Positions 28,201-51,167 are shown, numbered from the stretch's first letter. The stretch: DNA of 64,000 nucleotides from Fibrobacteria bacterium (GCA_050294405.1 JBNKOC010000012.1:463425-527424), one strand, 5' to 3'. A program made the numbers and translations. The notes: generated from the letters alone by a model not told the origin.

Positions 28201-28927
28201 CACCCCTTTGGATCCCCGGCACCGCTTTGTCACCACAAAATATAACCCTGCCAGAACCTGGACTTTGGAAAATGTAGTCGGAATTGGCGGCGCTTATATG
28301 TGCATATATGGAATGGAAGGCCCTGGAGGCTATCAGTTATTTGGCCGAACTTGCCAGGTTTGGAATAGCTATTGCCAAACAGATAGTTTTAAAGATGGAT
28401 TGCCCTGGTTGCTAAGGCTGTTTGATCAAATACGCTTCTATCCCGTAAGTGAAAATGAATTGCAGGAGTTTAGAAAAGATTTTTTATCAGGAAAAATTAA
28501 TGTTCAAATTGAAAAGACTAAGCTCAATTTAGGGGAGTATAAACAATTTTTAAACAGAGAGCAGGAATCCATTCAGGAATTTCAAACTTCCCAGAGAAAA
28601 GCCTTTCAGGAGGAAAGGGAGCAATGGGAAAAGGCTGGGTTGATGAAGTTATCCGAAGAGATATCCGATACCCAGATGTCTGAATTGGGAAGTGAATTGG
28701 GAGAAGGGCAAAAAGCGGTTTCATCAAATATGCCGGGAAATATTTGGAAAATCCTCGTTGAGGAGGGAAAACAAATTGAGGAAAATGAAACTGTCATGAT
28801 ATTAGAAAGTATGAAAATGGAGTTTCCAATTAAGTCTGAATATAGCGGCGTAATAAAAAGGATATTTGCCGAAGAAGGCCAGATTATTGAAGCTGGACAG
28901 ATGTTATGTGTACTTGAAGAAAAATAA
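25292..28927 (+). CDS. urea carboxylase (biotin carboxylase + carboxyltransferase/allophanate-hydrolase-subunit-like + biotinyl carrier domains)
   Basis: 1211 aa. N-terminal biotin carboxylase (KVLIANRGEIACRIIKT; ATP-grasp GGGGIGMR). Central AHS1/AHS2-like domains. C-terminal biotinyl domain with the E(S/A)MKME attachment motif (ILESMKMEFPI). Confidence 0.9.
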   Translation: MDKLFSKVLIANRGEIACRIIKTLKKMGIKSAVVYSDADRNSLPTQLADEAIHIGNSPSHESYLDFNKIISVAKSISAEAIHPGYGFLSENVEFAKACEINEICFIGPTPSQLKDFGLKHVSKEIAKKANVPLIPGTGILTELSEAIESADFIGYPVMLKSSAGGGGIGMRLCHNNFELEESWEKVLHLSKTHFGSAEVFLEKYIEKGRHIEVQIFGDGNGKIITLGTRDCSVQRRNQKVIEEAPAPNLDVDIEKNIVASAQSLAEFVKYKSAGTVEFIYDITSSRHYFLEVNTRLQVEHGVTEEVYSVDLVEWMVRQAAGPNFLNSQKIPEPDGHAMEFRWYAENPLKNFMPCAGKITRLKIPEEIRCDSWVQEGQEVSTFYDPLLAKLISKGKNRQEAILRLKSALEKSELQGLYSNKEYVSSILSHPDFIEANVHTQWANTHHWKSNVIEVLEGGAQTTIQDFPGRLGYWEVGVPPSGPMDNLAFQLGNSLLKNNSDAAGLEITLKGPSLKLHSSCEFCLTGSQLNAFLEKADGTKLELQMYTSYHANSGDILNSGSVIGPGMRAYILFKNGLNVFPFLGSCSTFTLGQFGGLDGKILKPGDMLPIIPTKEHKTFVSESMPKNLQPEITNDWKIGCMIGPHSTSEFFLQEDIQKILEAKWKVHFNSNRTGIRLIGPKPTWARKDGGEAGLHPSNIHDNAYAIGTMDFTGDMPVLLGPDGPSLGGFVCPLTCIQSEVWKLGQLKPGDSVQFYLVGGAEANSQLKSQNAYITNFLNNLPSAISLYKPENTLPSPILKEYVNKDGLPITIRQAGDSYMLLEIGELHLDLEYRFRIQWIWNELKNRSIEGITDLTPGIRSLQIHYDSFLLPQEKIVAIISELETNTPPVEDMTVESRVVHLPLSWNDEAIHKIIDKYIKTVRSDAPWCPDNIEFIRRVNGMPDVESVKNAIFDASYLVMGLGDVYLGAPVATPLDPRHRFVTTKYNPARTWTLENVVGIGGAYMCIYGMEGPGGYQLFGRTCQVWNSYCQTDSFKDGLPWLLRLFDQIRFYPVSENELQEFRKDFLSGKINVQIEKTKLNLGEYKQFLNREQESIQEFQTSQRKAFQEEREQWEKAGLMKLSEEISDTQMSELGSELGEGQKAVSSNMPGNIWKILVEEGKQIEENETVMILESMKMEFPIKSEYSGVIKRIFAEEGQIIEAGQMLCVLEEK

Positions 28928-28938
28928 AGGAAACATGG

Positions 28939-30804
28939 ATGTATACCTATGATGATTTGACTCCTGTTCTTTCCTTAGCTGATTTAAAATCCTATTACCG
29001 TTTTAATGGGCGAATTGAGTACATATTAGACGGAATTCATAAGCGCTATAAAAAATTAGACGATCCCGCTATTTTTATTAAGTTACTCAGCAAAGAAGAA
29101 ACATTAAGGTTATTTAGCGAGTTCCATGGGCACAGGAGTAAAGAAGAACAAAAAAAGCTCCCCCTATACGGAGTTCCTTTTGCTGTTAAGGATAACATAG
29201 ATGTAAAAGGCATTCCTACCACGGCAGCTTGCCCCTCTTTTTCTTATATTCCCCAAAAACACGCCGTATCCGTGGAAAAATTACTTAAGGCTGGTGCATT
29301 GTTGGTAGGTAAAACCAACATGGACCAATTTGCCACAGGTTTAGTTGGTGTTCGCTCTCCCTTTGGCATACCTAAAAATCCTTTCAACCCTGAATATATT
29401 CCTGGCGGGTCAAGTTCAGGTTCGGCTGTAGCCGTTTCTAATGCAATTTGCTGTTTTAGCCTTGGCACAGATACCGCAGGATCCGGCAGGGTTCCGGCAA
29501 GTTTTAATAATATAATAGGGCTAAAACCACCTATTAAAATGGTTTCCAATCAAGGCGTGGTTCCTGCAGTTGCCTCCCTGGACTGTGTTAGCGTCTTTGG
29601 ATTATCTGTTTATGATGTATCTGAAGTTTTGAAAATCATTTCCGAACAAGATTTAGAAGACATTCTGGATCCTGAATACCAAAAGGGTTTTCATGAAGAT
29701 TTAGATTTTTTTAATAAAATCGAATTTATTAATCAGGGAGCTCAAAAATTTAGGTTAGGGGTTCCAGGGGATAAATACATTGAATCTTTGGAAGACCCGA
29801 AAAACAAAAAGAGCTACCAATTAGCCGTTAGGCGATTTGAAAGCCTGGGGTGGGAAATTGTTCCTCTGGACCTGACATTTTTAAATAACTGCGCCAAACA
29901 ACTTTATGAAGGCCCCTGGGTTGCGGAGCGATATAGTGCGGTTGGCGAATTTATTGAATCTAAACCGGATGGTTTGGATGCCACCGTTGAAAAAATAATT
30001 AAAGCGGCAGGCAGTATTAGAGCCCATGAATTTTCAAAGGCTATACATCAAAATTTTGAGGATCTAAAATACATGGATTCAGAGTGGAAAAAAATGGATG
30101 CCTTTATTTTGCCTACTACCCCTAGTATTTACAAAATTGAAGAAGTTAAAAAGAGACCTGTTGAGTTGAATAGTCAATTGGGAACTTTCACAAATTTTGC
30201 AAACTTACTCCAAACCTCGGCCATATCCCTACCTGCGGGACACCAGAGGGATGATATGCCAACTAGTATTACTTTGTTTACCCGTAAGACCCGTTTGAAC
30301 TGGATGTTGAAATGGGCCGATGATTTTTTTAAAAATGAAAAACTAATGTGTGGAAAGCAAAATCCGCTTAACTCCACCAATAGCCCAAATGTTTCCTCTC
30401 CTAAAAATGGGACCGTGCATCTGGCGGTGGTAGGGGCTCATTTAAAGGGTCAGCCATTACATTGGCAAATTGAAAAATGTAAAGGTAGATTTGTGGAAAC
30501 GGCCCAAACGGAAAGCTCCTATGAGTTGTTTGAAATAACCAATTCCATTCCTCCCAAGCCTGCTCTTCGTTATGTGGGACGAAATCATGGTAAATCCTAT
30601 TCCATAGAAATTTATTCTCTTCCTTATTTCGGTTTAGGCCAATTTATGGAATGGATTCCAGCTCCGTTGGGAATTGGGACTATTTTTCTGGAGTCCGGTG
30701 AATCGGTTAAAGGGTTTATTTGCGAACCGGTGGGTTTTGAGGATTCCAAGAATATTTCTAGGTACAAAGGATGGAAAGCTTATCTTCGGACAAAGAAAAG
30801 TTAA
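28939..30804 (+). CDS. allophanate hydrolase (amidase-signature family, AtzF-like)
   Basis: Amidase signature (GGSSSGSAVAVSNAICCFSLGTDTAGSGRVPA). Catalytic K in VPFAVKDNIDV. 621 aa with the C-terminal AtzF extension. Immediately downstream of urea carboxylase. Confidence 0.85.
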   Translation: MYTYDDLTPVLSLADLKSYYRFNGRIEYILDGIHKRYKKLDDPAIFIKLLSKEETLRLFSEFHGHRSKEEQKKLPLYGVPFAVKDNIDVKGIPTTAACPSFSYIPQKHAVSVEKLLKAGALLVGKTNMDQFATGLVGVRSPFGIPKNPFNPEYIPGGSSSGSAVAVSNAICCFSLGTDTAGSGRVPASFNNIIGLKPPIKMVSNQGVVPAVASLDCVSVFGLSVYDVSEVLKIISEQDLEDILDPEYQKGFHEDLDFFNKIEFINQGAQKFRLGVPGDKYIESLEDPKNKKSYQLAVRRFESLGWEIVPLDLTFLNNCAKQLYEGPWVAERYSAVGEFIESKPDGLDATVEKIIKAAGSIRAHEFSKAIHQNFEDLKYMDSEWKKMDAFILPTTPSIYKIEEVKKRPVELNSQLGTFTNFANLLQTSAISLPAGHQRDDMPTSITLFTRKTRLNWMLKWADDFFKNEKLMCGKQNPLNSTNSPNVSSPKNGTVHLAVVGAHLKGQPLHWQIEKCKGRFVETAQTESSYELFEITNSIPPKPALRYVGRNHGKSYSIEIYSLPYFGLGQFMEWIPAPLGIGTIFLESGESVKGFICEPVGFEDSKNISRYKGWKAYLRTKKS

Positions 30805-30912
30805 CCTCTCAATTGCTAGTGTAATTTGTGACAATTTCTTTCAAAATCTGACAGACAAATCGACATGCAGCTTATTTTTGGCAAAAAAATAGGATTGAAA
30901 ATGGCTTAAATT

Positions 30913-32394
30913 TTGCGCTGTTTTATAAATATGGATCCAGTTTTTGATACCTACGAAATCGGTCAATCCTATGACGAGTATTTCGAAGAAGATAAAAAAA
31001 TTAAAAACCATTTATACCCCCTGGTAAATCGCCTTGCAAAGTTAGGGAAAACTGAAATCCTCCGACGCCAAACTGCAGCCGAATCCTTGTTGTTAAATCT
31101 TGGGGTAACCTTTAATGTTACTGGGGATAGCAGCGGACCTGAACGCATATTTCCTATGGATATTTTGCCCCGCCTGATTGAATTAAATAAGTGGAAAAAC
31201 ATTGAAAAAGGTTTGCGGCAAAGAACTTATGCCTTAAACGAATTTATTCAGGATATTTATAATAATCAAAACATACTAAAAGACAGGATTATCCCTCCCG
31301 AAGTTATCTATACATCTCCTGGATATAAAAACCAGTGCAGAGGTGTGACTCCTCCCGGCAAAACCTGGATTCATGTCGGGGGAATGGATATGGTTTCCGA
31401 TGAAAAAGGCAATGTTTATGTGCTTGAGGATAATTTGCGTTGCCCTTCCGGAGTATCTTATGTATTGGAAAACCGGCAGGTGATGAAAAGGACTCTCCCG
31501 CAGGTTTTTGAAGAAATGAATCCTCTTCCGGTAGAAGATTACCCCATACAACTATTAGAAACATTAAGGAGTACAGCTCCAAATACTTCTACAGATCCAT
31601 GCCTGGCTGTTTTAACTCCTGGAATTTACAACTCCGCCTACTTTGAGCATAGTTTTTTGGCGCAACAAATGGGAGTTGAGCTGGTAACCGGAGATGACCT
31701 GTTTGTTGAAAATAAATTTTTGTTTATGCGCACCACACGTGGGCCCAAGCGCATAGATGTATTGTACCGTCGCATAGACGATGATTTTTTAGATCCAAGA
31801 GTTTTTCGACCCGACTCAATGCTGGGAGTACCGGGGATAATGGAGTGTTTTACTTCAGGAAACCTCACTTTGGCAAACGCTCCGGGAACTGGGATTGCCG
31901 ATGACAAAGTGATTTATGCATACATACCTGAAATCATTAAATACTATTTGGGCGAAGATCAGATTTTACCGAATGTTCCCACTTATTTATGTCAAAACCC
32001 TTCGGATTACAAGTATGTATTGGAAAACATGGATAAACTGGTGATAAAATCAGCAAATGAATCTGGAGGATATGGAGTGCTTATTGGTCCCCATGCTTCT
32101 AAAGAAGAATTGGCGAAATGGAAGACCCGTGTTCAATCTGATCCAAGAAATTATCTGGCTCAGGTAAAACTGAATTTAAGTATGGCCCCGTGCATAATCG
32201 GGGAGAATTTTGAACCACGCCACATTGATTTGCGTCCCTTTATCTTATTTGGCAAAGAAATTTTTATTCTGCCTGGGGGGCTGACCCGTGTGGCCCTGCG
32301 AAAAGGCTCCTTAATTGTAAACTCTTCTCAAGGTGGTGGTAGTAAAGATACCTGGGTAGTGGAACATTTGCCCACGGAGGAAAACGATGCTTAG
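30913..32394 (+). CDS. circularly permuted ATP-grasp (type 2, DUF404/DUF407) amidoligase
   Basis: 493 aa. Clear paralogue of the N-terminal half of the 38498-41077 protein (VLEDNLRCPSGVSYVLENR vs VIKDRTQAPSGMGYALENR; LANAPGTGIADDKVIYAYIPEIIKYYLGE vs IVNPIGSRILENSGLNPFMPALCKYFLDE). Conserved neighbourhood with alpha-E, Anbu and transglutaminase genes. Confidence 0.7.
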   Translation: MRCFINMDPVFDTYEIGQSYDEYFEEDKKIKNHLYPLVNRLAKLGKTEILRRQTAAESLLLNLGVTFNVTGDSSGPERIFPMDILPRLIELNKWKNIEKGLRQRTYALNEFIQDIYNNQNILKDRIIPPEVIYTSPGYKNQCRGVTPPGKTWIHVGGMDMVSDEKGNVYVLEDNLRCPSGVSYVLENRQVMKRTLPQVFEEMNPLPVEDYPIQLLETLRSTAPNTSTDPCLAVLTPGIYNSAYFEHSFLAQQMGVELVTGDDLFVENKFLFMRTTRGPKRIDVLYRRIDDDFLDPRVFRPDSMLGVPGIMECFTSGNLTLANAPGTGIADDKVIYAYIPEIIKYYLGEDQILPNVPTYLCQNPSDYKYVLENMDKLVIKSANESGGYGVLIGPHASKEELAKWKTRVQSDPRNYLAQVKLNLSMAPCIIGENFEPRHIDLRPFILFGKEIFILPGGLTRVALRKGSLIVNSSQGGGSKDTWVVEHLPTEENDA

Positions 32395-33394
32395 CCGCGT
32401 GGCGGATTCAATTTATTGGATGAGCAGATACATCGAAAGGGCTGAGAATGTGGCCCGCTTTATTGGAGTTAATTTGTCATTAAACATGGATACGCCTCTG
32501 GTTGTTAAAGAACAATGGGAGCCCTTGTTGCATGCAACTGGAGATTTGGAGTCTTTTATTGAAAAATTTAAGGATTACGACTCTGAAGGCAGCAAGTTCC
32601 ATCCAAATGAACATAAAACAAATGTTTTAAATTTTTTAACCTTCGATTTTCAAAATTCCAATAGCATTTATTCCTGTATAGCCAAGGCTCGCGAAAATGC
32701 CCGTTTGATAAGGGGATACATAAGCACAGAAATGTGGGAGCATATTAATAAGCTTTACCATTTTATAAATAACAAGCAAACCGAAATGAAAGCGCAATCC
32801 GACCCCATTAATTTTTTTATTGAATTGAGGATGTCTATATATACCCTAATAGGAATGACGGATGCTACCTTTTGCCGGGACGATGGCTGGAATTTCCAAC
32901 AGCTTGGCACTTATTTGGAAAGAGCGGATAAAACGACGCGCATTTTAGATGTTAAATATTTTATTTTACTGCCCAAAGTAGGCCATGTTGGTAGTGTTAT
33001 CGAAGATATTTTGTGGGCAGCTCTTTTGCAATCCGTAAGCGGATTTCAAACATTTAAGCAAAAATATCATAAATTGACCCCCGATAGTGTTGTTGAATTT
33101 TTGTTATTGGATAGAGAATTTCCCCGTTCAGTCTTGTTCTGTTTAAAACAGGCCGAAAGCAGCTTGTTCAAAATTTCGGGTACAAGTCCGGGGTATTTTT
33201 CAAATTCTGCGGAGCAGAAATTGGCCAGGCTTAGAAATGAATTAGAATTTAGCAGCGTTGAAGAAATAATTATTCGAGGGCTGCATGAATACTTGGAAAG
33301 TCTCCAAAAACGCATATATGAAATCGGACAGGATATTTTTAGCTTTTTCTTCAAATATCCCCAAGAAGATTTTGCATATGGCGCAAGCCAATAA
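32387..33394 (+). CDS. alpha-E domain (DUF403) protein
   Basis: All-alpha 335-aa protein. N-terminal motif SRVADSIYWMSRYIERAENVARF is paralogous to FWAGRYIGRTLSLARF in the C-terminal half of the 38498-41077 fusion protein. Overlaps the upstream ATP-grasp gene by 8 nt. Confidence 0.65.
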   Translation: MLSRVADSIYWMSRYIERAENVARFIGVNLSLNMDTPLVVKEQWEPLLHATGDLESFIEKFKDYDSEGSKFHPNEHKTNVLNFLTFDFQNSNSIYSCIAKARENARLIRGYISTEMWEHINKLYHFINNKQTEMKAQSDPINFFIELRMSIYTLIGMTDATFCRDDGWNFQQLGTYLERADKTTRILDVKYFILLPKVGHVGSVIEDILWAALLQSVSGFQTFKQKYHKLTPDSVVEFLLLDREFPRSVLFCLKQAESSLFKISGTSPGYFSNSAEQKLARLRNELEFSSVEEIIIRGLHEYLESLQKRIYEIGQDIFSFFFKYPQEDFAYGASQ

Positions 33395-33410: not shown

Positions 33411-34193
33411 TTGGGTTTATTTTCAAATTTAAGATTTGGAGGCATTATTACTTTTTGTTTGGGAATTAAAGTAAAAGATGGTTTAGTTGCTTTATCTGAT
33501 ACAAGAATTACATCAGGGGCTGAATGTATTACAGCCCGGAAACTTACCATTTTTCAAGGAAAAAATTATTTCTTTTTTGTAATGACTTCGGGTTTACGCT
33601 CTTTAAGAGATAAATCATTAATTTATTTTGACGAGTATTTTAGTAAACATAAAAATAGCCATGATCAACTTTACAAAGTTGTGAATACGATGGCTTCTCA
33701 AATACGAAGAGTTTATAAAGAAGATGCAGAAGCTCTAAAGGAAGCAGGGCTGCAATTTAATATTCATATGATTATCGGCGGTCAGATGTCCAAAGATGCG
33801 GACCATCAATTGTTTTTTATCTACCCCCAGGGAAATTGGGTCGCCGTTGGAGTTGGGACTCCTTATCAAATAATTGGAGCAACTCCATATGGTAAGCCGG
33901 TATTAGACAGAACCCTAAAATATGAGGACAGCATTCCCTTTGCTTTAAAAGTGGGTTGCTTGGCATTTGATTCCACCCGAATTTCTGCTGCAGATGTTGA
34001 TTTTCCTTTAGATGTTGTTCTTTATGCGAAAAACTCCTACGAATGTGTGGAACATAGATACGAGAAGGACGATTTGAAAGAGGTATCAGAATGGTGGCAG
34101 GGGAAACTCAGAGAATCTGTAGATTCCTTTCCAGGAAGTTGGTTCAACGATATTTACAGGGAACTGCCAAAGCCTAAACGCATGAAAAAATAA
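33411..34193 (+). CDS. Anbu-type proteasome-like (Ntn-hydrolase, beta-subunit homologue) peptidase
   Basis: Motif T-FCLGIKVKDGLVALSDTRITSG matches the Thr1...D17...R/K pattern of proteasome beta/HslV/Anbu N-termini. ~260 aa. Sits in the Anbu-characteristic neighbourhood (CP-ATP-grasp, alpha-E, transglutaminase). The ORF starts at a TTG, with a 13-aa leader before the putative catalytic Thr. Confidence 0.6.
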   Translation: MGLFSNLRFGGIITFCLGIKVKDGLVALSDTRITSGAECITARKLTIFQGKNYFFFVMTSGLRSLRDKSLIYFDEYFSKHKNSHDQLYKVVNTMASQIRRVYKEDAEALKEAGLQFNIHMIIGGQMSKDADHQLFFIYPQGNWVAVGVGTPYQIIGATPYGKPVLDRTLKYEDSIPFALKVGCLAFDSTRISAADVDFPLDVVLYAKNSYECVEHRYEKDDLKEVSEWWQGKLRESVDSFPGSWFNDIYRELPKPKRMKK

Positions 34194-34205: not shown

Positions 34206-35018
34206 ATGAAATATAAAATCAATCATGTTACAGAATATTATTATAATAATTTGGTCGTTTTAGGCCCCCATGTAATCCGTCTTATTCCCAAATCCACGGC
34301 AATACAGCATTTAATAAATTGCGAAATAGAAGTTTTTCCAGAGCCTGCGGGGAAATCAGAAATTGTGGACTTTTTCGGGAACAGATGTTTGTCTGTTTGG
34401 TTTACCGGAAAAACTGAAAAATTAACCATTAGCGCAATATCCGAAGTTGAGGCGATAGCTTTTAACCCTTTTCAATTTCTTTTAGATTCCAATTGGCTGA
34501 ACCTTCCCTTGGGAAAACCTGTGATAAGATCAAATAATACCGGAATACTCCGGGAAATGGAAAAAGATTTTGGGGTGGAGTTTACCGGAAATACGGTTCA
34601 TGTATTGCAGTTATTATGCAACATCATTTACCAAAAAATATCTCAAATTAAAAGGTTGGAAGGCGTTCCACATGATCCAATGGTTACTTGGCATAAAAAG
34701 GAAGGGGCTTGCAGAGACTTAGCTGTATTATTCATGGAATGTTGCTCATGTCTGGGTATACCTTCCAGATTTGTCAGTGGATATTTACATCATCGAAGCG
34801 AAGAGGAACAGCACATGCATGCCTGGGTTGAAATATACCTGGAGGGAGCGGGCTGGAGGGCGATGGACCCCACAAACGGCTTATTTGTTGAAAATGAACA
34901 TATTTCAGTGGCATCAGCTCCCGAATCTGAATTAGCGAGCCCAATTACCGGCAGTTATGGCGGAAAAGCTAATTTGGAGAAGATGGATATTTCTATTGAA
35001 ATGATAAAGACACGCTGA
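34206..35018 (+). CDS. transglutaminase-like cysteine-protease-fold protein (Bact_transglu_N + transglutaminase core)
   Basis: Catalytic Cys GACRDLAVLFMECCSCLGIPSRFVSGYL. His in HAWVEIYLEGAGWRAMDPTNG, followed by the Asp. 270 aa. Confidence 0.75.
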   Translation: MKYKINHVTEYYYNNLVVLGPHVIRLIPKSTAIQHLINCEIEVFPEPAGKSEIVDFFGNRCLSVWFTGKTEKLTISAISEVEAIAFNPFQFLLDSNWLNLPLGKPVIRSNNTGILREMEKDFGVEFTGNTVHVLQLLCNIIYQKISQIKRLEGVPHDPMVTWHKKEGACRDLAVLFMECCSCLGIPSRFVSGYLHHRSEEEQHMHAWVEIYLEGAGWRAMDPTNGLFVENEHISVASAPESELASPITGSYGGKANLEKMDISIEMIKTR

Positions 35019-35156
35019 TAATTCGATGTATAGGCTTTTGAGCCTGACAATACTGCTGTAGGGATGTATCTTTATAATACCTGTTAAGGGTTTCCCCAGG
35101 CTCAACGGAATGCTTCCAGTTAAGAAAAAGCGGGAACTTTCAAAGGAGAATATGTT

Positions 35157-38100
35157 ATGACGCTAAAGGTTGTTATATCCCATAAAACATTTTATCAGTT
35201 TGACAGATTGGTGACCATTTCTCCCCATGTATTCAGGCTCAGGCCCGCACCACATTCCCGCACGCCGATATATGCCTATTCAATGAAGATTAAACCTGAA
35301 AAACAATTTTTTAATTGGCAACAAGATCCATTTGGAAATTACCAGGCCAGATTGGTTTTCCCTGAAAAATCCAGGGAGATGAGTATTGAGGTAGAAATCA
35401 TCGCCGATTTAACAGCTATAAATCCCTTTGATTTCTTTGTTGAAGAATCTGCCAAGTACTTCCCTTTTAAATATGACAGATTAACAAAAAGAGAATTAAA
35501 CCCCTATTTGAAAACTTCCCGAAAAGGCAAACTTTTTTCTGAATGGCTAAATAGCATTGATAGGTCTAAGAAAATAACTATAGATTTTTTAATTGATATT
35601 AATCAAAAAATTAATAACATGTTAAAGTACAATATTCGCATGCAGCCTGGAGTGCAAAGCTGTGAAGTTACGCTGAGAAAAAAATCTGGATCTTGTAGAG
35701 ATTTTGCCTGGCTGCTTGTGCAAACACTGCGGCATTTGGGGTTTGGTGCCAGGTTTGTTTCCGGTTATTTAGTGCAGCTTAAAGCCGATGTTAAATCCTT
35801 AGATGGTCCATCCGGTCCGGAAGAAGATTTTACAGATTTACATGCTTGGGCAGAAGTTTATGTTCCGGGTGCTGGTTGGATAGGTTTAGATTCCACATCC
35901 GGACTACTTGCAGGAGAGGGGCATATTCCACTTGCATGCACTCCATCTTTTGAAGGAGCAGCTCCGGTTACCGGGACAACTGATATTTGTAAAACAGTGT
36001 TTTCATATGAAAACACTGTTAAAAGAATCTTTGAATCGCCAAGAGTTACAAAACCTTACACAGATAATCAGTGGTTGAAAATCAACCAGTTAGGGGAAAA
36101 AGTCGAAAATGAACTCCAAAAAAATGATGTTAGATTAACCATGGGGGGAGAACCTACTTTTGTTTCTATTGATGATATGGAGTCCGCTCAATGGAATACG
36201 GAAGCTGATGGAGAAGAAAAAAGAAAACGGGCAATTGATTTATCGAAAAAATTATTGAAACGTTTTGGAAAAGGAGGGGTACTGCACCACCCGCAAGGCA
36301 AATGGTATCCAGGTGAAATATTACCGCGCTGGGAAATTGCCTTGTATTGGAGAAAAGACGGAAATCCAATTTGGAAAAATCCAAATTTATTAGGTACACC
36401 AAATTCAAATAATCAAAATATAAACATAAGCCTGGCAAAAAACTTTTTGCAAAAGTTATGCGATAAGCTATCTGTGGATCAAAAATATTTGATTCCCGGT
36501 TACGAAGATGCCTTTTATTTTTATTGGGAAAAAGAGAAATTACCTACAGATTTAGAACCAGAAAATATTGATTTAAAATCACCGCCAGTAATGCAAAAAC
36601 TGACAGAACTACTAAACAAGGGCTTAAGCGAACCTGCCGGATTTGCGCTTCCATTACATTATGGGAAACAGGGCTGGGATTCTAGCGATTGGAAATTAAA
36701 AAGAAAACGCTTGGTTTTAATTCCAGGAAATTCCCCTATGGGTCTTAGGCTTCCCCTTGAATCTTTAATGTTAAAACCTGAGCGGGAGCCGGGTCCGGTT
36801 ATGCCTAAAGATAATTTCTCTTCATTAGGGAAGTTGCCGGAATCATCTCAGATAATAGAGCGAAGAAATAAAACTGAAAAATTTTCCACTTTTGATGCAT
36901 CATCGGGAAATTTAATTCGAACAGCTCTTTGCATAGAACCTAGGGCAGGTTCTCTTTACGTTTTTTTGCCCCCTCTGGAAAGTTCAGAGGCTTTTTTGGA
37001 TTTGGTTTGTTGTATTGAAGCCGTTTCCGCTCAGTTGAATGTGCAAATAATATTGGAAGGTTACTCCCCTCCCGAGGACCACCGAATTCAAAAGTTAAAG
37101 GTAACTCCAGATCCTGGGGTTATTGAAGTAAATATACATCCTTCGCAGAGCTGGAGTGAATTGTGTGAAAACACCTTTGCTTTATATAAAGAAGCTGAAT
37201 TATCACGGCTGGGAACTCAAAAGTTTATGCTGGATGGAAAGCATACTGGGACTGGTGGGGGCAATCATGTGACCTTAGGCGGGGCCACTCCTTCTGATAG
37301 TCCTTTATTACGAAGGCCCGATTTACTTCGAAGTTTAATAACATATTGGCAACATCACCCCGGACTGTCTTATTTATTTTCCGGCGCCTTTATTGGGCCA
37401 ACTAGTCAGGCTCCAAGAGTGGACGAGGGAAGAGCTGAGAACTTGTATGAGTTGGAAATTGCCTTTAGCCAAATTCCATCTTCAAAAGAGGTGCCCTTTT
37501 GGCTCACGGATAGATTGTTTCGCCACTTACTAACGGACATTACTGGAAATACCCATAGGTCGGAATTTTGTATTGATAAATTATACAGTCCTGACTCCAG
37601 CTCAGGAAGGTTGGGAATATTGGAACTAAGAGCCTTTGATATGCCCCCCCATGCCAGAATGAGCCTTACCCAAATGCTTTTGGTAAGAACCCTTGTTGTT
37701 TGGTTTTGGCAAAAGCCTTATAAGCATAAGCTCATTCGATGGGGAACGGAATTACACGACAGGTATTTGATGGAGCACTATGTCAGAGAAGATATGAACG
37801 ACATTGTGGAACAGCTGAATAGGGAAGGCTATCCTTTGGAATTGGACTGGTTTAACCCGTTTTTTGAATTTAGGTTCCCCCTATACGGCATTGTACATAT
37901 AAATAGGGTAGAATTGGAGTTAAGGGCTGCAATTGAACCTTGGAATGTGCTGGGCGAAGAAATGACAGGCAGAGGAACCTCAAGATATGTAGATTCATCT
38001 GTGGAAAGGTTGCAGGTAAAATTGAATAATTTCATAGAGGATAGGTATATACTAACTTGTAATGGAGTTCGGATTCCGCTTAGCTCTACAGGAAAGGCTG

Positions 38101-38501
38101 GAGAATACGTGGCCAGCATCCGATATAAAGCCTGGCAGCCATGGTCCGCCCTGCATCCAACCATTGGAGTAGATACCCCCTTGATATTTGATATTTTGGA
38201 TAGCTGGAATAGCCGATCATTGGGAGGCTGCACTTACCATGTTTCTCATCCAGGGGGAAGGAGTTATGAAACATTTCCTGTAAATAGTTTTGAGGCTGAG
38301 TCCAGGAGAATAAGCCGGTTTTGGGATATTGGCCATTCCCAGGGTGAAATAACTCCCCTTCAACATTCCAGTAATGTTGTTAGTCTGGGAAGGGGTGTTA
38401 GCATCAAGAGCCCATCGGCAGGATTTATATATCAGGAGCCTCCAATTAACCTTGAGTTTCCACATACGCTTGATTTAAGGAAAAGCCATAAAGTAAGATG
38501 A
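35157..38501 (+). CDS. large transglutaminase-family protein (N-terminal transglutaminase-like domain + ~800-aa DUF2126-like C-terminal region)
   Basis: 1114 aa. N-terminal ~270 aa paralogous to the two small TGase-like proteins (GSCRDFAWLLVQTLRHLGFGARFVSGYL; HAWAEVYVPGAGWIGLDSTSG). The long C-terminal extension has no other recognisable motif. Architecture recalled as that of mycobacterial Rv2566-type proteins. Confidence 0.7.
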   Translation: MTLKVVISHKTFYQFDRLVTISPHVFRLRPAPHSRTPIYAYSMKIKPEKQFFNWQQDPFGNYQARLVFPEKSREMSIEVEIIADLTAINPFDFFVEESAKYFPFKYDRLTKRELNPYLKTSRKGKLFSEWLNSIDRSKKITIDFLIDINQKINNMLKYNIRMQPGVQSCEVTLRKKSGSCRDFAWLLVQTLRHLGFGARFVSGYLVQLKADVKSLDGPSGPEEDFTDLHAWAEVYVPGAGWIGLDSTSGLLAGEGHIPLACTPSFEGAAPVTGTTDICKTVFSYENTVKRIFESPRVTKPYTDNQWLKINQLGEKVENELQKNDVRLTMGGEPTFVSIDDMESAQWNTEADGEEKRKRAIDLSKKLLKRFGKGGVLHHPQGKWYPGEILPRWEIALYWRKDGNPIWKNPNLLGTPNSNNQNINISLAKNFLQKLCDKLSVDQKYLIPGYEDAFYFYWEKEKLPTDLEPENIDLKSPPVMQKLTELLNKGLSEPAGFALPLHYGKQGWDSSDWKLKRKRLVLIPGNSPMGLRLPLESLMLKPEREPGPVMPKDNFSSLGKLPESSQIIERRNKTEKFSTFDASSGNLIRTALCIEPRAGSLYVFLPPLESSEAFLDLVCCIEAVSAQLNVQIILEGYSPPEDHRIQKLKVTPDPGVIEVNIHPSQSWSELCENTFALYKEAELSRLGTQKFMLDGKHTGTGGGNHVTLGGATPSDSPLLRRPDLLRSLITYWQHHPGLSYLFSGAFIGPTSQAPRVDEGRAENLYELEIAFSQIPSSKEVPFWLTDRLFRHLLTDITGNTHRSEFCIDKLYSPDSSSGRLGILELRAFDMPPHARMSLTQMLLVRTLVVWFWQKPYKHKLIRWGTELHDRYLMEHYVREDMNDIVEQLNREGYPLELDWFNPFFEFRFPLYGIVHINRVELELRAAIEPWNVLGEEMTGRGTSRYVDSSVERLQVKLNNFIEDRYILTCNGVRIPLSSTGKAGEYVASIRYKAWQPWSALHPTIGVDTPLIFDILDSWNSRSLGGCTYHVSHPGGRSYETFPVNSFEAESRRISRFWDIGHSQGEITPLQHSSNVVSLGRGVSIKSPSAGFIYQEPPINLEFPHTLDLRKSHKVR

Positions 38502-41077
38502 GCACCACCCCTTTAAATTCCAAGTCTATGTTTTCTGATTATTTCAAGGAAAATGGTTATGATGAATTGGGAAGTTCCATTGGGAATATAAAAGCCGTAT
38601 GGAAACCACTAATAAAAAATTTACAAAATTTAGGGCTGGATGGACTGGCTGAAAAACAAAATCACCTAAGCTGGCAACTTTCAGAAAATGGAATAACCTA
38701 TAATGTATATGGCGATCCAAAGGGAATGAACAGGCCGTGGAATTTAGATGTGACCCCTCAACTAATCCATGAATCTGAATGGAAATTACTTGAAAAAGGA
38801 TTAAAACAAAGAAGTGAACTGCTAAATCTTATTTTTAAGGATATATACGGAAAAAGAAACTTGTTGAAGTCGGGGATAGTTCCCCCTGAGGTTATTTATA
38901 GTCATGGAGGTTTTTTACGGGTTTGTGATCAGGTTTCTTACTCTTGTGAAAAACCTCTTTATGTGCATGGCTGTGATATGGCCAGGGGACCGGATGGAAA
39001 TATGTGGGTAATAAAAGACAGGACCCAGGCGCCATCTGGAATGGGGTACGCGTTGGAAAATAGGCTAAGTCTGGATAGGGTAGTACCTGAGCTGAGTTTA
39101 AATATGTATGTCAGGCAAATTGCAAATTTTTATGATAATTTTAAAAATCTGCTATTGGAATCTCATTCTCAAAATAACGAGAATCCCAATATCGTTGTTA
39201 TGACGCCCGGTCCGCACAATGAAACCTACTTTGAACACTCTTATTTAGCTGAATATTTTGGTTTTTCTCTGGTTCAGGGAAGAGATTTAATTGTGCGGGA
39301 TGGCTATTTGTGGATGAAAAATTTGAATGGCCTTAAAAAAGTCGATGTCGTTTTAAGAAGGGTTGATGACATATATGCAGATCCCCTTGAATTAAAAGAG
39401 GACTCACAACTCGGAGTTGCAGGATTACTGGATGTTATACGTAAAAATAATGTGACTATAGTTAATCCCATAGGAAGTCGGATCCTTGAAAACAGTGGGC
39501 TAAATCCGTTTATGCCGGCATTATGCAAGTACTTTTTAGATGAAGAGCTAATAATTCCCCAAATCGCAACCTGGTGGTGCGGGCAGGAGCTGGAAAAAAA
39601 TTATGTAATGGAAAATCTTTCCCAATTGATTGTAAAAAGAATAGATCACGGGTCGGGCCATCCAATATACTACGGTTTTGACTTAACGAAATCTGAACTA
39701 ATCCAGTTGAGAAATCAAATTCTTGCAAAGCCATATCTTTTTGTGGCCCAGGAAAAGGTAAGTTTCTCCACCTCACCTACATTTACCGGGAATGGATTTG
39801 AGCCGCGTTATAGCAGTTGGCGCACTTTTTCAATTGGAACAAAAGATGGCTACAAAGTCATGCCTGGCGGTTTGGTGAGGGTTTCGCCCCAACATGGAAA
39901 TATATTAGTGTCTAATCAAAAAGGTGGCACTAGCAAGGATATTTGGATTATTGCAGACTCCCCTGAACCTAAATCCAAGATTTTTAAAAAGCCCATAAGT
40001 TCCTCTATGGCGTTGCCTGGCTTGAATGAACTTCCAAGTTTAACTGCTGAAAATTTGTTCTGGGCAGGCAGATACATTGGAAGAACATTGAGTTTGGCGC
40101 GATTCACCAGAATGGTTGTTAAAAAGTTATTGTACAATCCCTATGAAGGGGGTAACAAATTTAAACCGCAAATTAATCATTTGTTCCAAACCTTAACAGA
40201 TTTAACATGGTCCCATCCAGGTTTTTATAAGCCTGAAAATTTAAATACAAAAGCCGCAGCCTATGAAGAATTAAATTCAATTTTATTTGATGTTAATAGG
40301 AACGGAAGCCTTTCGCAGACTATTTCCATGTTTACAAATACCTACTATTCAATTCGATATTTATGGTCTTCGGATATGTGGAGGCTGTTTGATCGAATTG
40401 AAATAATATGGTCTGATATTCAAAACAATGCTTTTAGGGATTTGCAGGATATGTCTCAAGCGTTGGATCAGCTAATTACAAGAATTATTGCATTTATGGG
40501 TCTGGTTGAAAAAAGCATTTTGATTAATCAGGGTTTATTGCTTTATTTTATAGGGATGCAATTGGAACAAGCCATGCAAAATGTAACTAAGTCCTATTGT
40601 ATACTAACCCCTTCTTTTGAAGACGCAGTGGAATATGAGCTCCTTGAGTCCCTATTAATAAGCCATGAAAGTCTTAACATATATAGATATAGTTACAGGA
40701 CCTATATCAACCCCCTAAATGTGATTGATTTAATTTTACTTCATAAAGACTATCCTAATTCTTTAATGTTTCAATTATCCAGAATGCAAAAAGATTTGAA
40801 AAAGATGCCTAAAGAAGGAGGAGAATCTAATTTAATGCCCCACGAGCACGGAATTTTTGAAGCATACTCCCTTTTAAGGCTGGCAAACCCCCAGAATTTG
40901 GCTGAGCAAACATTGTTGAACGGAAATCGGGCTATGTTAGGTGATTTGTTGTTGAAAATTAAACAAAACTTAATGGATACCAATCTGGAATTTAGCAATC
41001 GATATTTTAGCCATAGCTATTCTCAAAATCAACTTCTCCAACGCAACCCTAGCCAAAGCCTTGATTTACTCAGTTGA
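38498..41077 (+). CDS. fusion protein: circularly permuted ATP-grasp (N-terminal ~480 aa) + alpha-E domain (C-terminal ~330 aa)
   Basis: 859 aa uninterrupted ORF. N-half paralogous to 30913-32394 and C-half paralogous to 32387-33394 (motifs above). ATGA overlap with the upstream gene. Confidence 0.7.
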   Translation: MSTTPLNSKSMFSDYFKENGYDELGSSIGNIKAVWKPLIKNLQNLGLDGLAEKQNHLSWQLSENGITYNVYGDPKGMNRPWNLDVTPQLIHESEWKLLEKGLKQRSELLNLIFKDIYGKRNLLKSGIVPPEVIYSHGGFLRVCDQVSYSCEKPLYVHGCDMARGPDGNMWVIKDRTQAPSGMGYALENRLSLDRVVPELSLNMYVRQIANFYDNFKNLLLESHSQNNENPNIVVMTPGPHNETYFEHSYLAEYFGFSLVQGRDLIVRDGYLWMKNLNGLKKVDVVLRRVDDIYADPLELKEDSQLGVAGLLDVIRKNNVTIVNPIGSRILENSGLNPFMPALCKYFLDEELIIPQIATWWCGQELEKNYVMENLSQLIVKRIDHGSGHPIYYGFDLTKSELIQLRNQILAKPYLFVAQEKVSFSTSPTFTGNGFEPRYSSWRTFSIGTKDGYKVMPGGLVRVSPQHGNILVSNQKGGTSKDIWIIADSPEPKSKIFKKPISSSMALPGLNELPSLTAENLFWAGRYIGRTLSLARFTRMVVKKLLYNPYEGGNKFKPQINHLFQTLTDLTWSHPGFYKPENLNTKAAAYEELNSILFDVNRNGSLSQTISMFTNTYYSIRYLWSSDMWRLFDRIEIIWSDIQNNAFRDLQDMSQALDQLITRIIAFMGLVEKSILINQGLLLYFIGMQLEQAMQNVTKSYCILTPSFEDAVEYELLESLLISHESLNIYRYSYRTYINPLNVIDLILLHKDYPNSLMFQLSRMQKDLKKMPKEGGESNLMPHEHGIFEAYSLLRLANPQNLAEQTLLNGNRAMLGDLLLKIKQNLMDTNLEFSNRYFSHSYSQNQLLQRNPSQSLDLLS

Positions 41078-41954
41078 ACATATAACCGAATATAAATATT
41101 CGGATTATGTAAGTTATTGCCATAATATCGCTATGTTAAAACCCCGGAGTTATAGTGGTAACGAATTAATTGACTTTACCCTTGAAATTGATCCGATTCC
41201 GGCTCAAATCAGCGAAGGGTTGGATTTTTTTGGAAATAATTTAACCCGTTTTTCCATACACGAAATGCATCAAATGTTGCGAGTTCGCTCTCACAGCTTG
41301 ATTTCCAGGGGAGTGTTGCAATATGAACTAGGTGAAGGAAGAAAAATGCCTTCTCCTATTACCGTTGCCCAAACCAGAGAAGAATTAAAAAAAATTAATC
41401 CAGACTACATTTTGGCCAGGCAATATATAATTGAGTCTCAATTGATTAATAATTATCCGCAATCTATTTTAGAATATTCCAGTAAATTTTTCGGACCAGA
41501 AACACCCTTGTTTGAAGCGTCCTTGGAATTAACATCTGGCATATATAACGATTTTGAATTTGTTCCTGGGTTTACCACTATTACCACTCCTTTAAATGAA
41601 GTAATGGATGGGAAAAAAGGCGTATGCCAGGATTTTGCGCATATAGCCATTGCCTGTCTTCGTGCTCAGGGATTAGCCGCCCGTTATGTTAGTGGTTATA
41701 TAGAAACAATTGCTCCTCCAGGCCAGCCTAAACTTACAGGGGTAGATGCCTCTCATGCCTGGTTTGCAGTTTTTATTCCTGGAATGGGCTGGGTTGATTT
41801 TGACCCAACCAATAACCAACTTCCTGGAGAAAATTATGTGACAATGGCTTGGGGAAGGGACTACTACGATGTGCCCCCTTTAAAAGGAGTAATCTATACA
41901 AATGGAGCGAACAGTTTAAAGGTCTCCGTCCATATGGAACAGGTTAAATCATAA
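41061..41954 (+). CDS. transglutaminase-like cysteine-protease-fold protein (third paralogue)
   Basis: GVCQDFAHIAIACLRAQGLAARYVSGYI (Cys). HAWFAVFIPGMGWVDFDPTNN (His/Asp). 297 aa. Overlaps the upstream gene by 17 nt. Confidence 0.75.
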   Translation: MIYSVEHITEYKYSDYVSYCHNIAMLKPRSYSGNELIDFTLEIDPIPAQISEGLDFFGNNLTRFSIHEMHQMLRVRSHSLISRGVLQYELGEGRKMPSPITVAQTREELKKINPDYILARQYIIESQLINNYPQSILEYSSKFFGPETPLFEASLELTSGIYNDFEFVPGFTTITTPLNEVMDGKKGVCQDFAHIAIACLRAQGLAARYVSGYIETIAPPGQPKLTGVDASHAWFAVFIPGMGWVDFDPTNNQLPGENYVTMAWGRDYYDVPPLKGVIYTNGANSLKVSVHMEQVKS

Positions 41955-41955
41955 T

Positions 41956-43380
41956 TTAAAATTGCAATTGAGGAAAAGTGGCAAGTTGTACTCCCAGGGC
42001 CATTTGGGCGAATATTTTGCGGGACTGTATAATTTTAGAACATTCCTCGTTGTTATATTGAGTGCATAGAAATTCCGCTTGTAACATTTCAGGGCTGTTA
42101 TCATGATTAACGGCAGCAACCGCTAGGAGAGTTTCACCATTTGTAGCTAAAGTTTCGAATAAATATTTTTCAGTTTGCCATTGGTAGTTTTCCATTGTGT
42201 TCAGATAAAGCCCTTTACGGTTTACGGTAACTCCGTATCTTGTCACGGGTTCAAAATAGCTCCATGCCTGGTCAGGAAACAATTGTCCGTTGGGGTAATC
42301 TTCCGTAAATTTTTTTTCAAACTTTATTGATTTTTGTTGAGCATCTATTAAATCGTTAGTTGGAACTATCATAAAATTGACTTCCATTCTTGTATCACCA
42401 ACGCTTGCGATATGATAATCCCCTTCATTGTATATTTTCGCCCCTTCTGGCAGGACCAGGGTGGCCCCGGATGTTTCTTCTTGGTAAATATCGTATCGAA
42501 AGGAAAATGGATCAAAATTTGAAAATAATTCTGCAAGCTGGCCAAGACTTAATTTATCATCGGCTGTTAGGGAAAGTTCTAGGAAACTTCTGGTCTTAAG
42601 TTTGGTCAGTTTTAAATTTCCAATTTTCTTGGTTTTTTCCACATCTACTTTCAAATCCGCCGCGAATAGTTCTTTAATTCCCTTCGCATTGGGCACTTTG
42701 GTTTCTACTGAATTTTCTAATTCGAGAATTTGGTTGGAAGGAATTCCCCAACAAATACCAATAGCTCCATTTTCCAGGCCTCCGTCCACAACTCCAATGA
42801 CCTTTCCCTGTTTATCTAAAATTGGGCCGCCAGATAGGCCCGGGACTAAATTGCCTTCAAGGTTGATAATTTCAATATCAGTACTGGGGTATTCTTTTAT
42901 GTTGTTCAATGCTTTGGCAGGCAAAATAGTTTTGAGTTTATTGCCTCCAAACCTCACTTTAATTTCCGTACTGCTGGCGCTGGAAATGTTTAAGGGGAAG
43001 CCAAGAGCATCCAGAGTTTGCTTTGCCTTTGGAAGCTCAACATTAAGACTAAGAGCTGCGCGATTTAAAGGTGCTAGAAGGGATAATAATACCAGATCAG
43101 ATTTTTTGAGCACTTTAATTACTTTGGCCTTGGAAGTTTTGATGATTTTTCCATCATCATTGATATATTTGACTAATATTTTTGATTTTCCATCTACAAC
43201 ATGCAAAGATGTTACGACCCAATCAGTTTGTTTCCAAATAAACCCTGAAGCGTTACTACTTTCTGTTTCAACCTTAACTACAGATAAACTTGCGTTTTTT
43301 AATATTTCAGTCCCATATATGTCCAGGTTTAATATCAGGGCATATAAAAAAACAACCGATATATATATTCTTTTGTCCAT
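41956..43380 (-). CDS. secreted trypsin-like (S1/chymotrypsin-fold) serine protease with an uncharacterised ~250-aa C-terminal domain
   Basis: Signal peptide (ISVVFLYALILNLDIYG). Catalytic triad context: His (WVVTSLHVVDG), Asp (SDLVLLSLL), Ser (GNLVPGLSGGPILD). No PDZ motif recognised. Confidence 0.7.
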   Translation of the reverse strand: MDKRIYISVVFLYALILNLDIYGTEILKNASLSVVKVETESSNASGFIWKQTDWVVTSLHVVDGKSKILVKYINDDGKIIKTSKAKVIKVLKKSDLVLLSLLAPLNRAALSLNVELPKAKQTLDALGFPLNISSASSTEIKVRFGGNKLKTILPAKALNNIKEYPSTDIEIINLEGNLVPGLSGGPILDKQGKVIGVVDGGLENGAIGICWGIPSNQILELENSVETKVPNAKGIKELFAADLKVDVEKTKKIGNLKLTKLKTRSFLELSLTADDKLSLGQLAELFSNFDPFSFRYDIYQEETSGATLVLPEGAKIYNEGDYHIASVGDTRMEVNFMIVPTNDLIDAQQKSIKFEKKFTEDYPNGQLFPDQAWSYFEPVTRYGVTVNRKGLYLNTMENYQWQTEKYLFETLATNGETLLAVAAVNHDNSPEMLQAEFLCTQYNNEECSKIIQSRKIFAQMALGVQLATFPQLQF

Positions 43381-47860: not shown

Positions 47861-48138
47861 CCTATTGACAATTGAGTGATGAAGTAAGGGTTTCACAGGT
47901 TGAAACCCTTATTAGTAGTGTTTTCCCATTCATATTTTGCGCGTCAAAAAATGGCAAGACTTCGCCTTTAATACATGAACAGCAGTAATAGGCATTTTAT
48001 TTGTGTGTAGAGTTAAATTAATAACTCTTGGAGTCTCCATGGCCATACCGCATTATTGCTCAACTGTCAGGTGAATACGATCACTGTACACCAATAAGAA
48101 TTATTGGAATTAATTTTCGGTTAGATTTTTTTGATTCC

Positions 48139-49038: not shown

Positions 49039-49341
49039 GGTTTTAAAATTTAGCTCCTGTGGTTCTGTAAACCACTTAATAATTTAGCGTAATTTGAGAA
49101 TGAACAATTCTTTTAACTTGACAAAAATAGTCAAGCCAACATCCATAAAAAAGGACCATTTGAAAATCCATTCAACGTTACTGAAATGTTACGAATTTGA
49201 CCCTAAAAATGCTCTTTTATCTCACTTTGTCACAACTTATGACAACCCTTTTAATTAACATCTATCATAAAAATTCTTTTAAAATAAAGATTTATGATTC
49301 TGCTTGATAAAATTGGCGAAATTTTGAAATGAGCGAAAGAG

Positions 49342-49415: not shown

Positions 49416-49597
49416 ATTTTCGAATTCAAATATATATTTTCGACCCGGCCTTTCAATTCCAAATTATTCCCCAATTTATCATTGGGCTTGGCCCGATAAA
49501 AACAGATTGACCCTGTTTGCCAAGGTATTTTATCATCAAATAAAGTCACAAATATCTCAAATCTGGACCAGGATATTCAACCGGGGTTTCTTTTGAA

Positions 49598-51162: not shown

Positions 51163-51167
51163 GTATT

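Follow-up and report, generated by a model that had tools for sequence, protein, structure and literature searches.

The region from position 35,019 to 41,954 of a 64,000-nucleotide (nt) stretch of DNA from a Fibrobacteria bacterium (GCA_050294405.1, JBNKOC010000012.1:463425-527424; the whole stretch is referred to below as the window) contains three overlapping genes on the plus strand, encoding a giant protein in which a transglutaminase (TGase)-like domain is joined to a DUF2126 domain, a fusion of an ATP-grasp domain with an alpha-E domain, and a second, small TGase-like protein. This triad is best read, with a probability of roughly 0.75, as a translationally coupled three-gene operon that is placed downstream of an Anbu operon (module 1) and a nitrogen-scavenging array and that specifies a ligase/peptidase system. 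The features of the triad and of its upstream flank are listed below, with domain assignments taken from Pfam unless stated otherwise.

35019-35156, not stranded: non-coding spacer of 138 nt, from the TGase gene of module 1 to the giant gene
35143-35148, plus strand: AAGGAG Shine-Dalgarno sequence, 8 nt before the ATG at 35157
35157-38501, plus strand: giant TGase-DUF2126 gene, 1114 amino acids (aa), ATG start
giant protein, residues 7-82: Bact_transglu_N, expectation value (E) = 2e-22
giant protein, residues 133-245: Transglut_core, E = 4e-17
giant protein, residues 276-1108: DUF2126, E = 0
38498-41077, plus strand: ATP-grasp/alpha-E fusion gene, 859 aa, stop TGA at 41075-41077
fusion, residues 87-463: CP_ATPgrasp_2
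fusion, residues 512-837: Alpha-E
fusion, overall layout from alignment to the free paralogues: circularly permuted ATP-grasp at about 6-489, linker 490-513, alpha-E 514-843
41061-41954, plus strand: small TGase gene, 297 aa, TTG start
small TGase, 297-aa protein: Bact_transglu_N and Transglut_core

The open reading frame (ORF) map and the sequence itself reproduced the elements that the first-pass annotation had reported here, namely the 138-nt spacer, the AAGGAG 8 nt from the ATG, the ORFs of 1114, 859 and 297 aa, and the overlaps of 4 and 17 nt. The giant gene and the fusion meet at an ATGA, where the ATG that opens the fusion overlaps the stop of the giant gene, and the fusion gene in turn runs 17 nt into the small TGase ORF, provided that TTG 41061 is the start of the latter. 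The NCBI annotation (GCA_050293925.1, JBNKNQ010000001.1) instead begins the small TGase at ATG 41133, giving a protein of 273 aa. Because the alignment with the module-1 TGase and with orthologues begins at residue 1 of the 297-aa protein and so takes in its first 24 residues, and because Bact_transglu_N spans the protein from residue 3, i.e. within the disputed residues, the TTG start and hence the 17-nt overlap are the better-supported reading. No NCBIfam model matched any of the seven proteins encoded by module 1 and the triad. Beyond the small TGase lies a convergent gene for a 474-aa trypsin-like serine peptidase (41954-43380), the end of which is 1 nt past the small TGase stop codon, and the only terminator-like hairpin for the plus-strand operon (41993-42008, followed by a T-run to 42018) is located within this convergent gene.

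The catalytic residues expected of TGase-like peptidases are intact in both triad proteins that carry the domain, with C180/H229/D245 in the giant protein (motifs GSCRDF, HAWAEV and GLDST) and C189/H232/D247 in the small TGase (motifs GVCQDF, HAWFAV and DFDPT). These motifs align with one another and with those of the module-1 TGase, such that all three TGase domains keep Cys-His-Asp, and the Cys, His and Asp columns of the TGase domain are invariant in alignment A3. In a structure search with the predicted model, the N-terminal domain of the giant protein matched PDB entry 3isr and TgpA. The closest homologues of the giant protein belong to Bacteroidota (66-69% identity) and are annotated as DUF2126/transglutaminase family, and 2408 representatives were recovered at the 50%-cluster level with E <= 1e-30.

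For the DUF2126 domain, no sequence match was found in the PDB, including by profile search. Iyer et al. (2009) reportedly described this domain as circularly permuted relative to the glutamine-synthetase-fold ligases. A first full-length AlphaFold model of the giant protein was poor (predicted local distance difference test score, pLDDT, of 58) and returned only TGase matches along with weak ones to glutamine synthetase. A second model, restricted to residues 276-1114 and built from a more diverse alignment, reached a pLDDT of 73 and a predicted template-modelling score (pTM) of 0.77, and in a Foldseek search against the PDB 49 of its top 50 matches fell within the superfamily of glutamine synthetase, GmaS, glutamate-cysteine ligase and Dop (probability up to 0.85, E = 0.035-0.6, template-modelling score (TM-score) about 0.3). 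DUF2126 is thus placed with GlnA, GmaS, glutamate-cysteine ligase and PafA/Dop as its top structural neighbours in the model, but it differs from them in having no detectable sequence similarity, in its weak structural scores (E >= 0.035), in being joined to a peptidase domain, and in having no gene for a Pup-like substrate close by. The model matches agree with the published assignment of the domain (PMC2588565) and are not decisive; most likely, the predicted fold is that of a glutamine-synthetase-like, ATP-dependent carboxylate-amine ligase.

The fusion gene was claimed by the first-pass annotation to be a single uninterrupted ORF joining two domain types that are separate genes in module 1, and comparison with the free proteins bears this out. 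Residues 6-489 are colinear with residues 5-487 of the free ATP-grasp protein (34% identity, E = 1e-106), and residues 514-843 align with residues 3-335 of the free alpha-E protein (22% identity, E = 2e-11), with a variable linker of about 24 residues between the two halves. The N-terminal half further matches PDB 3n6x (E = 1.6e-86), an entry that its depositors labelled a putative glutathionylspermidine synthase. Among 5.8 billion proteins searched, at least 7951 homologues were found, of which the best 120 are all fusions of 827-874 aa (about 850 aa) with the same three Pfam domains. That the ORF could instead be an assembly or frameshift artefact joining two genes is next to impossible, given the presence of the fusion in those 120 homologues, in all 80 species loci described below and in the Nocardioides and Microbacterium loci, together with its colinear alignment to the free proteins across a short linker; the artefact explanation was rejected on these comparative data. 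The further claim that the fusion is evidence for the ATP-grasp and alpha-E proteins acting together is supported by the same colinearity and by how widespread the fusion is. This Rosetta-stone argument for a probable cooperation of the two proteins is sound as drawn from sequence comparison, and it is not new, being already contained in the literature and in the Pfam domain definitions.

The distribution of the triad was determined by a scan of one genome per GTDB species with the fusion alignment as query, which gave 80 loci that were annotated, with 10-kilobase (kb) flanks, for the domains present in the window. These loci derive from Flavobacteriaceae, Balneolaceae, Chitinophagales, Cytophagales, Methylomonas, Chromatiaceae, Sulfuricurvum, Arcobacter, Desulfuromonadales and Caldilineaceae. 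The giant gene is directly upstream of the fusion in 61 of the 71 loci with enough sequence and elsewhere within 10 kb in four more, and the small TGase gene is directly downstream of the fusion in 74 of 75, with gaps typically of 0-15 nt. Across all searches the triad was found in Bacteroidota, Actinomycetota, Proteobacteria, Campylobacterota and Chloroflexota, as well as on a plasmid of Enterobacter flanked by insertion sequences (IS). The small TGase of the window is 52-53% identical over its full length to the triad TGases of relatives, versus 25-28% to Anbu-type and module-1 TGases (25% to the module-1 TGase of the window alone). The triad is therefore a widespread and conserved three-gene operon of a known kind, described computationally in 2008-2009, and the window holds a further instance of it, the sole unusual feature being the adjoining Anbu operon and nitrogen-scavenging cluster. 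The seven-gene order of the window occurs in none of the 80 species loci, and was seen nowhere else in the other loci examined.

In 15 of the 80 loci the 10-kb flanks include a free ATP-grasp/alpha-E pair, often convergent with the triad, and in some genomes the pair and the triad are joined into a single operon. Among named organisms, those with the nearest relatives of the giant protein are Sunxiuqinia indica and Mangrovibacterium diazotrophicum (Prolixibacteraceae; 68% identity), where a five-gene operon runs in the order free ATP-grasp, alpha-E, giant gene, fusion and small TGase, with 21 nt separating alpha-E from the giant gene; locus L050 also has these five genes, with a 42-nt gap before the giant gene. 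A five-gene version is also carried by the 90-kb IncFII plasmid p1_120063 of Enterobacter roggenkampii, from a human blood isolate (L082, NZ_CP116251.1), where it is flanked by IS6/IS26 and IS110 transposases near arsC and encodes a giant protein 56% identical to that of the window; the module therefore appears to be horizontally mobile. On a Caballeronia plasmid (L083) the same five genes are interrupted, between alpha-E and the giant gene, by a metallopeptidase gene on the opposite strand. As in the window, the free pair of the five-gene operons is co-directional with and directly upstream of the triad, but these operons lack Anbu and lack an additional TGase between alpha-E and the giant gene, and they have a 21-nt gap or an overlap before the giant gene in place of the 138 nt seen here. 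From these comparisons, the free-pair and triad modules appear to be recurrently linked across genomes.

The first-pass annotation had likened the triad to the Rv2566-Rv2567-Rv2569c arrangement of Mycobacterium tuberculosis. In published work, Rv2566 exemplifies large proteins that begin with a TGase-like domain and end with a carboxylate-amine ligase domain (PMC2588565); Rv2567 was among the candidates chosen for an ATP-binding domain, as were Rv2411c and the ATP-grasp enzyme Rv1722 (bioRxiv 10.64898/2026.04.15.718621); and Rv2569c is placed by CDD in the YebA/TGase-like cysteine protease superfamily, with reported serine-protease behaviour (PMC11081392). A profile search of high-GC (guanine-plus-cytosine-rich) representatives recovered Nocardioides, Microbacterium and Aeromicrobium and no Mycobacterium, such that the Actinomycetota loci serve here as a proxy; in Nocardioides and Microbacterium the giant gene, fusion and small TGase gene are co-directional, with 4-nt overlaps and in the same order as in the window. 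No plasmid carrying a queried triad gene was found among actinobacterial plasmids. Rv2567 presumably has the ATP-grasp/alpha-E make-up, in which case the Rv2566/Rv2567/(Rv2568c)/Rv2569c locus comprises the same three families as the triad. The suffix "c" in Rv naming denotes the complementary strand, and the M. tuberculosis TGase is therefore not co-directional with Rv2567; by this naming, Rv2569c is convergent with Rv2566-Rv2567 and split from them by Rv2568c, and so is neither co-directional nor adjacent. The likeness consequently holds for the protein families, on the literature, and for the gene order in Actinomycetota, and fails for the strand and adjacency of the TGase in M. tuberculosis itself.

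The Nocardioides and Microbacterium loci differ from the window in having a fourth co-directional gene after the triad, encoding a 332-aa protein with a Zn-ribbon (DZR_6) and a Peptidase_Mx domain (L087 15704-16702 and L088 15703-16701), and the same gene is the metallopeptidase gene between alpha-E and the giant gene on the Caballeronia plasmid (L083 7814-8875). It may be a further accessory of the triad system, and Rv2568c, judged by its size and position, presumably could correspond to it. No Anbu gene was found within 9 kb of the triad in the Nocardioides or Microbacterium locus, and mycobacteria have a 20S proteasome and are not known to have Anbu. Accordingly, the statement of the first-pass annotation that no functional link to an Anbu module has been described there stands for mycobacteria; more widely it does not, since papers on the Anbu system, cited below, confirm parts of a predicted ATP-grasp/peptidase system.

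The mycobacterial literature also raises a quite different function, in which the small TGase would be exported as a protease against host or other external proteins and the cluster would serve virulence or the degradation of adhesion proteins, as Rv2569c has been reported to cleave E-cadherin and to behave as a serine-type protease (PMC11081392). Such a role is very improbable for the triad, which is found mostly in free-living marine and soil bacteria, whose small TGase gene is translationally coupled to genes for two ATP-dependent ligases that are presumably cytoplasmic, and whose small TGase appears to have no N-terminal extension, aligning from residue 1 with other TGases.

Directly upstream of the spacer is module 1, which comprises the following genes.

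30931-32394, plus strand: ATP-grasp gene (CP_ATPgrasp, Pfam), 487 aa from ATG 30931
32387-33394, plus strand: alpha-E gene (Pfam)
33447-34193 if the start is ATT, maximal ORF from 33411, plus strand: Anbu gene (PDB matches)
34206-35018, plus strand: module-1 TGase gene (Pfam)

Module 1 contains the same four families as the canonical Anbu operon of Yersinia bercovieri, Pseudomonas aeruginosa and P. putida (PP_2685-PP_2688). The Anbu assignment was made by phmmer against the PDB (5loy, 5nyw, 5nyj, 5nyf and 5lox, E = 1e-32 to 2e-22), with Thr14, Asp30 and Lys44 of the maximal ORF aligning with Thr1, Asp17 and the conserved Lys (about 32/33) of the solved chains; the Pfam Proteasome match was below the family cut-off (19.2 versus 22.4 bits). 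Its closest counterpart is locus L089, the sole close Anbu relative in a metagenome scan with Anbu, which has the four-gene Anbu operon as a stand-alone unit with a convergent gene after it and is 70% (ATP-grasp), 64% (alpha-E) and 70% (Anbu) identical to the window. The published gene order is ATP-grasp, alpha-E, TGase and Anbu (PMC6376114), whereas in the window, as in L089 (Anbu-TGase part at 10010-11688), Anbu precedes the TGase gene; because it is common to this closest relative, the variant order appears to be a feature of the lineage and not an error.

The genes of module 1 had been described as separated by 16 nt or less, or overlapping. This is accurate for the maximal ORFs, which show an 8-nt overlap and gaps of 16 and 12 nt, but two of the starts involved are probably incorrect. 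For the ATP-grasp gene, the NCBI annotation and the alignment with L089 point to ATG 30931 as the most likely start, and not to TTG 30913. A sigma-54-like TGGC-N7-TTGC sequence is present just upstream of this gene at 30902-30916, and such matches occur at chance frequency in the window. The Anbu gene probably starts at a non-canonical ATT (33447-33449) and not at TTG 33411, judging from the sequence around it: the ATT directly precedes the codon for the catalytic Thr1 and lies 4 nt after a GGAGG (33438-33442), and in L089 (9990-10030) an in-frame TGA is found two codons before the same ATT-ACT, with AAGGA 6 nt upstream and no canonical start upstream of Thr1. An ATT start would widen the gap between alpha-E and Anbu to 52 nt, and with it removal of the initiator Met would expose Thr1 with no need for a propeptide.

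Three families of the canonical Anbu operon (ATP-grasp, alpha-E and TGase) have their paralogues in the fusion and the small TGase of the triad, and the triad differs from that operon in adding the DUF2126 ligase domain, in fusing ATP-grasp to alpha-E, and in having no Anbu gene of its own. A recent tandem duplication of module 1 giving rise to module 2 was rejected because the paralogues are only 22-34% identical; the paralogy between the triad and the ATP-grasp/alpha-E/TGase core of the Anbu operon instead appears to be ancient. The free pair of the window is of the Anbu type, having 70% and 64% identity to the L089 pair versus 54-57% and 46-48% to the pairs of five-gene operons, and the closest homologue of the fusion (L084, 58% identity) is part of a triad that stands alone. 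Since the closest relatives of each module thus carry that module by itself, the simplest history would be that a complete triad came to lie next to an Anbu operon that was likewise complete.

The spacer at the junction of the two modules had been taken as a sign of two transcription units with an internal promoter, a reading that is plausible. The giant gene in most genomes heads a stand-alone triad, with 150-300 nt of intergenic sequence upstream and often a divergent gene beside it; because the giant gene is usually the first gene of an operon in this way, a promoter may have travelled with it, and most simply the spacer is a remnant of the triad's own 5' region that may hold that promoter. 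A candidate element is present:

35073-35078, plus strand: isolated TATAAT, 78 nt upstream of the ATG of the giant gene, without a -35 or an extended -10 element

The sole sigma-70-like match in the spacer, however, fits only 9 of 12 positions, and sigma-70-like sites show no excess over background in the region overall (31 found versus 35.8 expected from shuffles). A regulatory signal was sought in the spacer in several further forms, and all gave negative or chance results: there was no Rfam match or structured RNA (folding z = -0.22, unremarkable), no plus-strand ORF of at least 20 aa, Pup-like or otherwise, no sigma-54 -24/-12 promoter above chance, no conserved element shared with the sequences that precede the giant gene in relatives, and no Bacteroidota-type -33/-7 promoter, for which the window as a whole has 5 matches versus 5.2 expected and for which the promoter type of the host lineage may differ. 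Two short minus-strand ORFs of spurious appearance cross the spacer. Although Bacteroidota supply the best protein matches, their promoter consensus shows no enrichment, and the host lineage may be a divergent member of the Fibrobacteres-Chlorobi-Bacteroidetes (FCB) group.

It is correspondingly possible, at odds somewhat short of even, that all seven genes, or all fourteen from 20943 onwards, form one transcription unit and that the spacer is a promoterless, untranslated linker left by the juxtaposition and furnished with a strong Shine-Dalgarno sequence. Consistent with this, the genes are co-directional, no terminator follows the module-1 TGase gene in the spacer, where promoter matches neither exceed background nor include the Bacteroidota type, and the giant gene is co-operonic with an upstream pair elsewhere, across gaps of 21 nt in the nearest named relatives (which likewise counts against two units) and 42 nt in L050, and with an overlap on the Enterobacter plasmid. 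In addition, Shine-Dalgarno sequences are weak or absent before most genes of the window, the strongest being the AAGGAG ahead of the giant gene, which would suit re-initiation of translation after a long untranslated gap. Weighing in the other direction are the stand-alone position of the giant gene in most genomes, from which a promoter may have come along, the perfect TATAAT, and the absence of enrichment of the Bacteroidota consensus anywhere in the window, the host of which may use another promoter type. Given the lack of a terminator and the common direction of all the genes, read-through from module 1 into the triad is likely, with or without the internal promoter of the two-unit reading.

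Upstream of module 1, the same strand carries a set of genes for nitrogen acquisition.

20943-30804, plus strand: nitrogen-scavenging cluster (Pfam), upstream of the Anbu operon

The cluster consists of three genes for an NMT1-type ATP-binding cassette transporter, two DUF1989 genes, a gene for a 1211-aa protein of urea/guanidine-carboxylase type and one for a 621-aa allophanate hydrolase, and it ends 126 nt before the Anbu operon if the ATP-grasp gene starts at 30931. Nitrogen cluster, Anbu operon and triad thereby form a 14-gene co-directional array from 20943 to 41954. Urea/guanidine clusters of this sort degrade guanidine or urea and are often under the control of a ykkC riboswitch; Rfam found no riboswitch here. 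Elsewhere, the neighbours of the triad include a hydantoinase/oxoprolinase-type gene, an arginine decarboxylase gene and urate-degradation genes including uricase. The canonical Anbu operon and the window have a nitrogen-related context in common: nitrogen limitation strongly induces the Anbu operon of P. putida (PMC3235984, note added in proof), and expression of the Anbu operon on nitrate exceeds that on ammonium 16- to 22-fold (PMC8050072, Table 2). A role under nitrogen limitation is the best-supported physiological guess, and for this organism it would follow from gene context only. A stronger version, in which 20943-41954 is a single nitrogen-starvation supra-operon whose two ligase systems and Anbu act in sequence on the same substrate, possibly with proteins being tagged for Anbu- or TGase-mediated breakdown to release nitrogen, is unlikely; were it true, the organism would offer a compact genetic handle on Anbu function.

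Elsewhere in the window, a stretch of low GC content (48001-52000; 0.32-0.34 versus about 0.40 in the rest of the window) contains the only tRNA gene (49342-49415, minus strand) and, beside it, a run of small plus-strand genes, one with a faint PilM_2 match. This stretch could be an island or an integration site.

The analysis shows the gene content, the intact catalytic residues, the conservation of the triad in several phyla and the separate occurrence of the two modules in their closest relatives; what we infer from the gene content of the array is a mechanism of ligation followed by peptidase action. In the triad, the giant protein would combine a TGase-like Cys-His-Asp peptidase domain with a putative DUF2126 ligase, the fusion would provide a circularly permuted ATP-grasp ligase with an obligatory alpha-E partner, and the small TGase would be a second transglutaminase-like peptidase. 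The two ATP-dependent ligases would build an amide-linked product, either a peptide or gamma-glutamyl-type protein tag or a small peptide metabolite, which the TGase-like peptidases, together with Anbu where present, would trim or remove, the whole array probably being expressed under nitrogen limitation. Iyer et al. (2009) are said to have predicted such a system, made up of a circularly permuted ATP-grasp protein, a glutamine-synthetase-like ligase that is itself circularly permuted, alpha-E and an N-terminal nucleophile (NTN)-hydrolase peptidase. The published model, in which ATP-grasp ligases add peptide tags, TGase-like peptidases remove them and Anbu is a peptidase of the same system, is set out in three papers that cite Iyer et al. 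for it and confirm parts of the ATP-grasp/alpha-E/NTN-hydrolase prediction (PMC3495828, PMC5666114, PMC6376114).

Protein tagging is not the only reading of this ligase/peptidase content. Rather tentatively, the triad could make or recycle a small nitrogen-rich metabolite, such as a gamma-glutamyl- or glutathionylspermidine-like amide or a short storage peptide, with its TGase domains acting as amidases. This would suit the match of the ATP-grasp half to 3n6x, with its glutathionylspermidine synthase label, the identity of the best DUF2126 fold matches (glutamine synthetase, gamma-glutamylmethylamide synthetase and the bifunctional glutathione synthetase 3ln7), the small-molecule nitrogen functions encoded nearby in the window or in relatives (urea/guanidine carboxylase, oxoprolinase-type hydantoinase, arginine decarboxylase and uricase), and the absence of a Pup-like small ORF, none having been reported beside these ligases (PMC2588565) and none of at least 20 aa being present on the plus strand of the spacer. 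Against it, a self-compartmentalising Thr-protease homologue such as Anbu and three papain-fold peptidase domains are better suited to peptide or protein substrates, the published prediction is of a peptide tag (PMC3495828), and the protein-acting enzymes Dop and PafA have the same glutamine-synthetase-like fold (Foldseek match 7oy3). A small-molecule role of the triad is equally open.

Several observations weigh against the interpretation of the triad as a ligase/peptidase system working in a nitrogen-limitation context. To our knowledge, no biochemical function has been established for any triad protein. Each glutamine synthetase match of the DUF2126 model is non-significant when taken alone (E >= 0.035, TM-score about 0.3), and neither a site for a nitrogen regulator, nor a sigma-54 promoter above chance, nor a riboswitch was found. 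The triad does not need Anbu, since only 2 of the 80 species loci have an Anbu gene in the 10-kb flanks. Experimentally, lysates with Rv2567 and Rv2411c made no gamma-aminobutyric acid (GABA)-trehalose, a result that excludes one reaction only (bioRxiv 10.64898/2026.04.15.718621), and Anbu in vitro showed neither peptidase activity nor a stable complex with its operon partners, the biochemistry so far consisting of ATP turnover by one ATP-grasp protein (PMC6376114).

Both the triad and the Anbu operon belong to the more widespread bacterial gene clusters that still lack a known biochemical function, the giant protein having thousands of homologues that include those of M. tuberculosis and of a clinical Enterobacter plasmid. 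While not a new kind of system, the window is a natural experiment in which both paralogous ligase/peptidase modules adjoin one another behind a nitrogen-scavenging pathway, and this arrangement therefore makes a stronger case for a response to nitrogen limitation. The array suggests conditions and partners for biochemical reconstitution, for which its nitrogen-scavenging context is the most useful lead.

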